Assembly (NCBI RefSeq): GCF_000025505.1
Contig: NC_013849.1
Location: forward strand, 420,001 to 452,000
Direction: 5' to 3'
DNA length: 32,000 bases
From: Ferroglobus placidus DSM 10642
GTDB taxonomy: Archaea > Halobacteriota > Archaeoglobi > Archaeoglobales > Archaeoglobaceae
Shown piece by piece: positions 21,287-21,530 of the stretch (position 1 is its first letter; the number at the start of each line of letters is the position of its first letter). Made by a program: the position numbers and the translations under genes. Under the pieces are notes generated by a model. The model had not been told where the DNA came from. It made no database searches and saw only the letters and a program-made list of their open reading frames with translations.

Positions 21287-21530
21287 CTAGGCACCCTCCA
21301 CCAATCTCAGGTGCCCGGCCTCCGGCTGGGCGTTAAAAGGCCTGGATTGGTGGCAATCCCCCTCCGGGGGATTGGTCGGGTGCCTAGCACCCGTGGGTGC
21401 CGCCTCCGGCGGCTCAAGCTCACGGGTGCAACCCCCCGGACACCCCCTCCGGGGGTGGAAGGGGGCAGGTTGCCTCCCTCCGGGAGGCGGTAAGACTAAA
21501 GGCCCCGGAGCGCTTTGGATCGCCCGGGGG
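21287..21530 (+). ncRNA. Candidate structured RNA (about 245 nt) with five C(UCC)G-capped hairpins nested in long-range helices
   Basis: Five hairpins share one apex:
- GCCCGGCC-TCC-GGCTGGGC (21313-21331)
- CAATCCCCC-TCC-GGGGGATTG (21354-21374)
- GCCGCC-TCC-GGCGGC (21399-21413)
- CACCCCC-TCC-GGGGGTG (21441-21457)
- GCCTCCC-TCC-GGGAGGC (21472-21488)

Four long-range helices enclose them:
- CTAGGCACCC (21287-96) pairs with GGGTGCCTAG (21378-87)
- CCACCAATC (21298-306) pairs with GATTGGTGG (21345-53)
- CACCCGTG (21388-95) pairs with CACGGGTG (21421-28)
- CCCCGG (21503-08) pairs with CCGGGG (21524-29)

The strand is uncertain. One G-U pair favours plus, and TATA-like elements exist for both strands. 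Confidence 0.55.

Follow-up and report, generated by a model that had tools for sequence, protein, structure and literature searches.

Results

Gene content of the locus and architecture of the RNA

The DNA analysed here (the window) is a stretch of 32,000 nucleotides from the chromosome of the hyperthermophilic archaeon Ferroglobus placidus DSM 10642 (NC_013849.1, positions 420,001 to 452,000), and coordinates without a further label refer to it. At 21287–21530 it carries a GC-rich element with five hairpins capped by the same triloop, already noted in an initial annotation of the sequence, which we tentatively interpret as the structured core of a noncoding RNA (ncRNA) from an undescribed family. 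The genes around this RNA are mostly orphans. Two F. placidus DSM 10642 proteins on record are among their products, Ferp_0510 (the DUF6744 protein encoded at 27546–28475, with 100% identity) and Ferp_0504 (222 aa, encoded at 24028–24696). The module that could be named comprises a MoxR-type AAA+ ATPase, VWA, DUF2201 and DUF6744 proteins, Csx3 (ring-nuclease-type) and giant Ig-domain proteins, with the MoxR-type AAA+ ATPase/VWA/DUF2201 part located at 29482–30657 and beyond (L240). Because the MoxR ATPase showed protein-level matches to Sulfolobus and Acidianus viruses, including bicaudaviruses, as well as to jumbo phages, the island is read from its gene content as a probable virus-like integrated element of Archaeoglobi. 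The 172-aa protein adjacent to the RNA is a near-orphan, whose sole relative is a 97% variant on a 1.3-kb contig, and no relatives of the flanking proteins were found in IMG/VR.

Two further islands were found by following the flanking proteins. L243 is a 112-kb contig of an uncultured-archaeon assembly (GCA_054002995.1), and L386, a 74-kb European Nucleotide Archive (ENA) scaffold, is a more distant relative of the island. The features of the RNA gene in the window, based on the minimum-free-energy (MFE) fold and on a direct hairpin scan, are as follows.

21205–21220 (+): putative archaeal promoter, with a purine-rich stretch AGAAAGA resembling a B recognition element (BRE), then the TATA box TTTATATA(C)
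21224–21232 (+): GTAGTGTAG box, a possible regulator site, between the TATA box and the putative transcription start
21242–21286 (+): putative unstructured A/C-rich 5′ leader (A 44%, C 31%, G 9%), unpaired in the MFE fold; its start is an estimate, about 26 nt 3′ of the TATA box
21287–21387 (+): domain 1, a three-way junction in the MFE fold, made of P1, P2 with hairpin 1, and hairpin 2
21287-96/21378-87 (+): P1, a helix of domain 1 in the MFE fold
21298-312/21340-53 (+): P2, with a single bulged U and, on its 3′ side, the A-rich internal loop GUUAAAAG; bears hairpin 1 (21313-31, loop UCC)
21310–21334 (+): hairpin 1 in the hairpin scan, with an 8-bp core GCCCGGCC/GGCUGGGC and G.U pairs
21354–21374 (+): hairpin 2 of domain 1, 9 bp in the hairpin scan, loop UCC
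21388–21429 (+): hairpin 3, inner stem GCCGCC-UCC-GGCGGC (6 bp, 21399–21413 in the hairpin scan) on a 12-bp outer helix with two G.U pairs
21433–21465 (+): hairpin 4, inner CACCCCC-UCC-GGGGGUG (7 bp, 21441–21457 in the hairpin scan), a 3x3 internal loop GGA/GAA and an outer 5-bp helix
21470–21490 (+): hairpin 5, UUGCCUCCC-UCC-GGGAGGCGG (21469–21491 in the hairpin scan, with 7 Watson-Crick pairs and additional G.U pairs)
21503–21529 (+): terminal stem P6, CCCCGG-A-GCG / CGC-CCGGGG, with the 8-nt loop CUUUGGAU
21531–21716 (+): purine-rich, T-poor tail (A 48%, G 21%, T 13%), probably part of the same transcript
21726–21850 (+): C-rich CCCTACCAC repeat cluster, which may lie outside the RNA

In the modelled fold of the core, two two-hairpin units (P2/hairpin 1 with hairpin 2, and hairpin 4 with hairpin 5) flank the central hairpin 3, and P6 is terminal.

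Five unrelated stems with one apex

All five C(UCC)G-capped hairpins were recovered by the direct scan at the places originally given. Their stems are unrelated to one another in sequence, and each ends in the apex CCUCCGG, a second C-G pair lying beneath every C(UCC)G cap. No recurring triloop hairpin of any other type was found by the scan across the whole 32-kb window, and at most two hairpins shared one loop in 2000 dinucleotide-preserving shuffles of the region, compared with the five observed. The motif CCTCCGG occurs nine times in the 32 kb (3.4 expected) and is clustered as described, with five of the nine copies inside 165 nt and a sixth at 20969; the hairpin at this sixth copy (20969-75) is imperfect (CCGACC/GGCCGG, with one A.C mismatch). 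A UUCG-type tetraloop register at the apex was rejected, as it would break the stems.

The MFE of the plus strand at 21280–21540 was −166 kcal/mol, compared with a shuffle mean of −128.9 (z = −6.6; reached by 0 of 200 shuffles). This fold contains the long-range helices proposed earlier (21287-96/21378-87, 21298-306/21345-53 and 21388-99/21418-29) and also the terminal stem at 21503-29. The GC content of the core was 65–73%, compared with roughly 35–47% in the stretches immediately adjoining. The reported contrast with AT-rich surroundings therefore holds for the immediate flanks, but not for an AT-rich genome, since the window has about 50% GC.

Covariation with a close homolog

L243 shares synteny with the window over at least 9 genes (35–65% protein identity), and its positions 2573–2831 contain an RNA with the same architecture. 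A covariance model built solely from domain 1 of the window RNA (R1) retrieved L243 2567–2669 at 55.4 bits (E 7e-13). The model-derived alignment of domain 1 contained 41 pairs, 97.5% of them paired and 9 altered on both sides, whereas slid controls, in which partners were shifted by 1–3 columns, gave 0–1 both-side changes; column shuffles equalled this covariation in 2 of 500 cases. When the whole RNA was aligned by hand, 67 pairs were comparable (47 unchanged, 4 altered on one side, 16 altered on both sides and 0 broken), and RNAalifold, run on a plain MAFFT alignment, independently recovered all five capped hairpins.

The degree of conservation differed among the parts of the RNA. P6 showed the highest sequence conservation, with CCGGAGCGCYUYGGAUCGC common to L243 2806–2824. 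The inner stem of hairpin 3 is identical in L243, where it carries a UCU loop, and the outer 12-bp helix is not conserved. In the L243 counterpart of hairpin 4, the outer helix extends over 12 bp and includes compensated pairs, and an A-rich internal loop is present on the 3′ side. Hairpin 5 differs at three pairs altered on both sides. Hairpins 4 and 5 of L243 matched R1 model positions 15–92 (25 bits, E 2.6e-4), which is the P2/hairpin 1 plus hairpin 2 part of the model, and the RNA therefore appears to contain an internal duplication of a two-hairpin unit. The loops read UCC five times in the window, and UCC, UUC, UCU, UCU and UCU in L243, so that the apex CC-UYY-GG is present in 10 of 10 hairpins.

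Judged from these alignments, the element is a real, evolutionarily conserved folded RNA. The initial annotation had argued for a selected secondary structure and had named homologs with lost pairings as grounds for abandoning that view; the homolog L243, in one pairwise comparison, maintains the pairings through compensatory changes.

The same changes bear on the possibility that the element acts as DNA, whether as a single-strand origin, as cruciforms or as phased protein sites with CCTCCGG every ~42 bp. The motif spacing in the window (42, 42, 43 and 31 bp) is near whole helical turns, and the region adjoins inverted repeat arrays, but the spacing in L243 (40, 43, 38 and 38 bp) is unphased, and the compensatory changes keep the hairpins rather than the duplex motif. 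Moreover, the G.U (G.T) pairs fall on one strand only, making cruciform arms unequal, a conserved promoter is directed into the element, and no rolling-circle Rep protein was detected by the window protein scans. A DNA-level role is thus very unlikely, and this includes the single-strand replication origin suggested initially, which is hard to reconcile with the conserved promoter and orientation.

A distant locus with the same plan

Positions 6176–6390 of L386 contain a GC-rich multi-hairpin core (MFE −140.4, z −6.9), in which two copies of a three-way-junction unit flank a long central hairpin, the same plan as in the window. No sequence homology of this core to the window RNA was detected, the R1 search yielding nothing at E below 10. 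The promoter sequence is the same (GAGAAATCTTTATATACTCTC in L386 and CAGAAAGATTTATATACTCTG in the window), and the core is followed by a purine-rich tail, dense in GGAG motifs, and by a minimal tRNA-like minihelix immediately 5′ of the first gene. The repeated loops of L386 are a C(GGG)G triloop, present twice, and GGAGGGGUGAA, also present twice, which is Shine-Dalgarno-like and lies in 11-nt loops; all four belong to the duplicated three-way-junction unit.

The loop sequences of the three loci allow the ribosomal reading of the initial annotation, which regarded the loops as displayed CCUCC (anti-Shine-Dalgarno) or GGAGG, to be assessed. According to this explanation, mRNAs would be bound through base pairing of their GGAGG with the CCUCC apexes, and the GGAGG-like loops of L386 would instead engage the 3′ end of 16S rRNA. 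CCUCC is present in all five window apexes, the CCUCU and CCUUC of L243 could still pair with GGAGG through G.U, the two GGAGGGGUGAA loops of L386 are accompanied by many GGAG motifs in the tail, and the genes of the element use GGAGGUG ribosome-binding sites. However, only 3 nt are unpaired per motif and the flanking CC is engaged in C-G pairs of very stable stems, so that a 5-nt duplex would need these to melt at 85 °C. The anti-Shine-Dalgarno sequence is invariant, yet the loops drift by lineage (only one of the five L243 loops is still UCC) and show the opposite polarity in L386, and GGAG arises by chance in purine-rich tails. Mimicry of either ribosomal sequence is therefore improbable, and we do not retain the initial suggestion.

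Strand, promoter and coding potential

The strand, previously left open, is most likely the plus strand. All G.U wobble pairs are on this strand and become A.C mismatches on the minus strand, which makes the plus strand more stable in all three loci (−166/−154.7, −148.8/−122.4 and −140.4/−111.8 kcal/mol for plus/minus in the window, L243 and L386, respectively; an advantage of 11–29 kcal/mol). A BRE-like purine stretch with TTTA(T/A)ATAC is located 60–80 nt 5′ of P1 in the three loci, GAAA-NN-TTTA(T/A)ATAC being found also at L243 2501–2515 and L386 6083–6099. Among the TATA boxes initially placed on both sides of the element, TTTATATA at 21212-19 is conserved in the two related loci, whereas the minus-strand box exists but is not conserved in position. 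The GTAGTGTAG 9-mer occurs once in the window and once in L243, where it is identical and in the same relative place (2515); it is absent from L386. These signals point to plus-strand transcription from a strong BRE/TATA promoter at 21205–21220. Contigs of SRR3923786 were dismissed as expression evidence, as they proved to be genomic (37.7 kb).

Translation of the overlapping open reading frames (ORFs; 21287–21673 on the minus strand and 21311–21493 on the plus strand) would be another account of the region. Both ORFs exist, and GC-rich sequence is poor in stop codons. A tblastx comparison of the three loci, however, gave only fragments of at most 20 codons that switched frame from one to the next, with no frame-consistent protein similarity, and the ORFs are not conserved. 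No gene was called over the RNA region on public contigs, the 128-aa product of the minus-strand ORF has no database record, and the lengths of indels between homologs are not multiples of three. We give a coding function practically no credence.

The purine-rich tail and the possibility of a cis-acting leader

The purine-rich and T-poor tail is 130–190 nt long in all three loci (66% purine in L243 and 71% in L386). The first T-run of at least 4 after the window core is a T4 at 21717, followed by a T6 at 21973-78. In L243, the tail is followed by a hairpin and T5 (3026–3041; T5 at 3037), and no T-run of at least 5 was found between the L386 RNA and the next gene.

This arrangement could also be that of a cis-acting 5′ leader of a long rightward operon, in which the nascent structured RNA would act on RNA polymerase, or bring in elongation factors, to allow read-through of the many intergenic T-runs. 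This would be processive antitermination as by HK022 put or EAR RNAs; a variant would be simple protection of the long transcript from 5′ decay. The RNA lies directly 3′ of a strong promoter and heads a block of same-strand genes, its tail is conspicuously T-poor, strong T5–T8 runs occur between the downstream genes in the window and L243, and in L386 neither a T-run of at least 5 nor a TATA-like box separates the RNA from the first gene. On the other hand, the hairpin and T5 after the L243 tail, together with three unrelated genes between the RNA and the conserved module, argue against a leader there. In the window, the RNA is likewise set apart from the module by the T6 at 21973 and by a TATA-like box at 22203. 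No archaeal RNA of such a kind is known, and the known antitermination RNAs are much smaller and lack one loop repeated five times. We regard a leader function as possible but unlikely.

tRNA-like folds downstream of the RNA

Two tRNA-like folds are located 3′ of the tail.

about 22225–22308 (+): Y-shaped tRNA-like element with an 8-bp acceptor-like stem, a long arm and the T-arm CCGGG-UUCGAAU-CCCGG
21878–21978 (+): degenerate tRNA-like fold with a T6 run, with a closing stem and the T-arm-like GGTTCAAGTCC; sequence GCCGTGGCTCAGCTGGCAGAG ... GGTTCAAGTCCCGCCGGCACC

The Y-shaped element folds at −62.7 kcal/mol (z −5.5) and has homologs at L243 4893–5025, L389 ~944–1085 and L386 6725–6759. In all four loci it is positioned 20–40 nt 5′ of the start codon of the first conserved module gene, and its common features are a 7–8-bp acceptor-like stem, a T-arm-like hairpin and a variable inserted arm. 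The T-arm loop is UUCGAAU or UUCAAAU in the window and L386, the latter representing a minimal acceptor and T-arm minihelix. Against Rfam, the window element reached sub-threshold scores with the tRNA-like domain of transfer-messenger RNA (tmRNA; 17.3 bits) and with mascRNA (24.6 bits; gathering 42.5). We infer that it is linked to the hairpin RNA.

The fold at 21878–21978 scored 14.6 bits with the Rfam tRNA model (E 4), below the gathering score of 29, and ARAGORN called no tRNA gene in the window, hence neither of the two folds. It is a possible site of 3′ processing and termination of the transcript.

A 53-aa hydrophobic peptide, whose gene has a strong ribosome-binding site (GGAGGUG), is encoded in the interval from the RNA to the Y-shaped element (22018–22179, plus strand); no counterpart was found at that position in L243 or L386. 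A direct repeat of ~85 nt with ~80% identity relates 20788–20873 to 22239–22313. A degenerate tRNA-like copy is thus present 1.45 kb 5′ of the intact one, and the pair brackets the noncoding block and the 53-aa gene; the repeat may be an old insertion or duplication boundary.

Repeat arrays around the RNA

Inverted copies of a ~200–350-nt block (13766–14117 on the minus strand and 20916–21099 on the plus strand) flank a 6.8-kb segment. They consist of degenerate GTGGACTCGTATCATCGTCCTC subrepeats with a 72-nt period, four in the left block and two in the right, followed by a shared AT-rich stretch, and the GTGGACTCGTATCATCGTCCTC motif is absent from L243 and L386. A CRISPR array was rejected as an explanation, because the repeats are only ~79–90% alike, the right block as a whole is an inverted duplicate of 13766–14117 and the CRISPR models of Rfam gave no match; the blocks look like transposon-end or iteron arrays instead. 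One 'spacer' of the left block, CTCCGGGGGATTGGAATGGATGCCACAGCACCCGTGG (13907–13944, minus strand), is 84% identical to RNA positions 21362–21397, which span the 3′ half of hairpin 2, the 3′ strand of P1 and the start of hairpin 3. Either this spacer is a remnant of the RNA gene that has decayed, or it was captured.

The C-rich CCCTACCAC cluster 3′ of the tail was not found in L243 or L386. Within the window, CCTACC(AC) C-rich clusters at 11473–11741 and 21729–21830 are 76% alike over 89 nt in direct orientation; one adjoins the RNA tail and the other is near the AT-rich orientation-switch region. This latter region, at 12001–12400, has the lowest GC of the window (35%), a switch in gene orientation and the cumulative GC-skew minimum, and is a better candidate for an origin or divergent promoter than the RNA locus.

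The RNA could be a replication primer or origin transcript like ColE1 RNA II. The structured core would then keep the 5′ part folded, and the unstructured purine-rich tail would form a stable R-loop with the pyrimidine-rich template strand, to be processed into a primer. The order of promoter, structured domain and tail (130–190 nt, 66–71% purine) is kept in three loci, iteron-like repeat clusters flank the window RNA, and Cdc6/Orc-related winged-helix proteins are encoded nearby in L243. Nevertheless, conservation of the repeat clusters does not extend to L243 or L386. The switch in gene orientation, the minimum of GC skew and the AT-rich stretch all fall at ~12 kb, away from the RNA, and neither an antisense regulator nor a conserved replication initiator adjoining the RNA was found. 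In addition, we know of no description of R-loop priming for archaeal elements, and a primer function appears distinctly unlikely.

Other genes and elements of the island

The 102-aa protein encoded at 27064–27372 (plus strand) matched Pfam Cas_csx3 (E 1.7e-30). Csx3/Crn3 proteins degrade cyclic tetra-adenylate, and the presence of one in a mobile element suggests counter-defence against type III CRISPR. Adjacent 493-aa and 1665-aa proteins (30–6508, plus strand) consist mostly of Big_7 Ig-like repeats, at least 9 of them in the larger, and may serve the element or its host as adhesins or fibres. A second GC-rich, strongly folding intergenic element was observed just 5′ of the DUF6744 gene (27376–27525 in the window and 9901–10050 in L243). 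Its position and part of its sequence (GCCCGGG...CCCCGGCCCGGGGC.GUAUU) are kept, T-runs occur at its end, and it may be a complex terminator.

Database searches

Rfam 15 gave no match at the gathering score in the window, L243, L386 or L389, and the best sub-threshold scores over the RNA were at most 20 bits (E at least 0.4), in agreement with the earlier statement that it resembles no known family. H/ACA and C/D guide RNAs were rejected, as their boxes are absent and Pab91 scored only 18 bits on the wrong strand. The same applies to bridge RNA, omega-RNA and retron RNA (no adjacent recombinase, TnpB or reverse transcriptase gene), to type III antitoxin repeats (units not identical), and to a CRISPR array or anti-CRISPR repeat mimic (stems differ, repeats degenerate).

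For three or four spaced CCTCCGG motifs, the viral, genome and metagenome collections yielded nothing but repeats of high-GC bacteria, either coding or tandem, and none of these passed a hairpin filter. All 139 stretches matching the P6 motif CCGGAGCGC(N/Y)3GGATCGC in viral and metagenome contigs were chance occurrences without capped hairpins on their 5′ side. BLAST of the RNA against phage and plasmid collections yielded no match, and nothing relevant was found in the literature on the island, DUF6744 or a Ferroglobus provirus. The known copies amount to two close ones and one distant locus among billions of public sequences.

Discussion

A multivalent RNA as the preferred interpretation

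An RNA that presents one motif many times would be expected to have unrelated stems, a single shared apical motif and signs of selection. Five such hairpins are present in the window and five in L243, and their stems covary. Our preferred interpretation, to which we assign a probability of roughly 45%, is that the element is the structured core of an ncRNA of an undescribed family, encoded by a virus-like element of Archaeoglobi and serving as a multivalent scaffold or sponge. The GC-rich helices, which are very stable, would then be only a heat-proof frame, in keeping with stems that are free to change provided that pairing holds, and this frame would present five copies of the apex at fixed spacing. 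In such a model, the RNA would bind a single kind of partner, either as multiple copies or as one oligomer, and thereby act as a sponge or assembly scaffold. The mature RNA would probably be excised from a longer primary transcript, and the 3′ tRNA-like element could plausibly direct this processing by RNase P / tRNase Z.

Because the loop type is uniform inside an RNA but differs by lineage, the probable partner is a protein that the element itself encodes and that evolves rapidly, not a host component as invariant as the ribosome. CUCCG and CUCUG are outside the specially stable triloops of the nearest-neighbour model, so that stability alone leaves the choice of loop unexplained. Wobble lets each of UCC, UCU and UUC pair with GGA, so the target may possibly be an RNA rather than a protein. 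The initial annotation had offered an array of identical protein-binding hairpins as one alternative among several; it is the one that best fits the data, with the binding itself still conjectural. A more elaborate version, in which an archaeal scaffold RNA of duplicated three-way junctions, with loops co-evolving with a partner of the element, receives its 3′ end from RNase P / tRNase Z cleavage at the 3′ tRNA-like fold, after a genomically encoded A-rich tail, and is a counterpart of MALAT1-mascRNA, is speculative, and we would not expect all of its parts to hold.

Several observations weigh against the scaffold or sponge interpretation. The comparison comprises two close sequences and one distant locus, and the covariation comes from one pairwise comparison that was partly aligned by hand. 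The loops of the window and L243 have drifted about as fast as the stems (4 of 15 loop bases changed), which makes loop conservation across lineages weak. The uniformity of loops within each RNA, on which the argument is based, could also have arisen by gene conversion or by a recent duplication. That the RNA is transcribed, where it ends and how abundant it is are all inferred, and with no T-run of at least 5 in L386, a cis-acting leader fits that locus as well as a free RNA does. Finally, no RNA-binding protein adjoining the RNA was recognisable by Pfam, and the partner protein was not identified.

To our knowledge, hardly any work has addressed the structured ncRNAs that archaeal viruses and integrated elements encode, and we know of no archaeal counterpart in Rfam to the large mobile-element RNAs of bacteria. 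If the preferred interpretation is true, the RNA may represent the first described case of a large scaffold RNA in a virus-like element of archaea, and if the tRNA-like folds are processing signals, ncRNA maturation punctuated by tRNA-like structures would occur in archaea. The design is experimentally tractable, with five identical apexes on unrelated, extremely stable stems and four of the five capped hairpins contributed by the duplicated module. The lineage-specific identity of the loops predicts a co-evolving partner, and F. placidus DSM 10642 is cultivable, so that RNA-level experiments are feasible. With so few examples known (two close copies, one distant locus), the statistics are limited, and so is the breadth of interest. 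Its novelty is at the level of the family, and no new mechanism is claimed.

Comparison with known systems

Several known RNAs share individual features with the Ferroglobus RNA. The Hgc RNAs found by composition screens in Methanocaldococcus and Pyrococcus are likewise GC-rich islands in hyperthermophiles, but the present RNA has no Rfam match to these families and resides in a mobile element instead of the core genome. ColE1 RNA II is also a promoter-driven RNA with multiple stem-loops, and the 3′ purine-rich part described here could form a persistent RNA-DNA hybrid; unlike the ColE1 system, the locus shows no antisense RNA I, mapped origin or conserved initiator, and the skew and AT-rich signals are elsewhere.

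The vertebrate MALAT1 and MEN-beta transcripts with mascRNA have the same order of structured RNA, genomically encoded A-rich stretch and tRNA-like fold, at which RNase P cleavage would be possible. They differ in that the mascRNA score here is sub-threshold, no U-rich triple-helix (element for nuclear expression, ENE) is present, the distance from tail to fold varies between loci, the cleavage is a prediction and the organisms belong to different domains of life. The resemblance to mascRNA is a lead, not membership. The phi29 pRNA, GOLLD, ROOL and HEARO are also stable, element-encoded ncRNAs with multi-helix junctions and a promoter near the end of a gene block, and several RNAs of this type are oligomeric scaffolds. 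Their likeness to the Ferroglobus RNA is one of general theme only: the Rfam searches were negative, the loops lack the mutual complementarity of those in pRNA, the RNA has no associated packaging ATPase, and it comes from an archaeon.

Functionally, the nearest analogues of the proposed mechanism are CsrB, RsmY and RsmZ of bacteria, which likewise carry many hairpins with different stems and one short loop motif, and bind multiple copies of a protein. The motif bound by CsrA/RsmA is GGA/ANGGA, and GGA loops exposed on the transcribed strand are the defining feature of that group, whereas the loops on the favoured plus strand here are UYY (UCC, UCU or UUC) and GGA appears on the disfavoured minus strand. 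We know of no CsrA in archaea, and no CsrA domain was found among the window proteins scanned. There was no Csr/Rsm match in Rfam, and the stems of the Ferroglobus RNA are long, GC-rich and arranged in three-way junctions.

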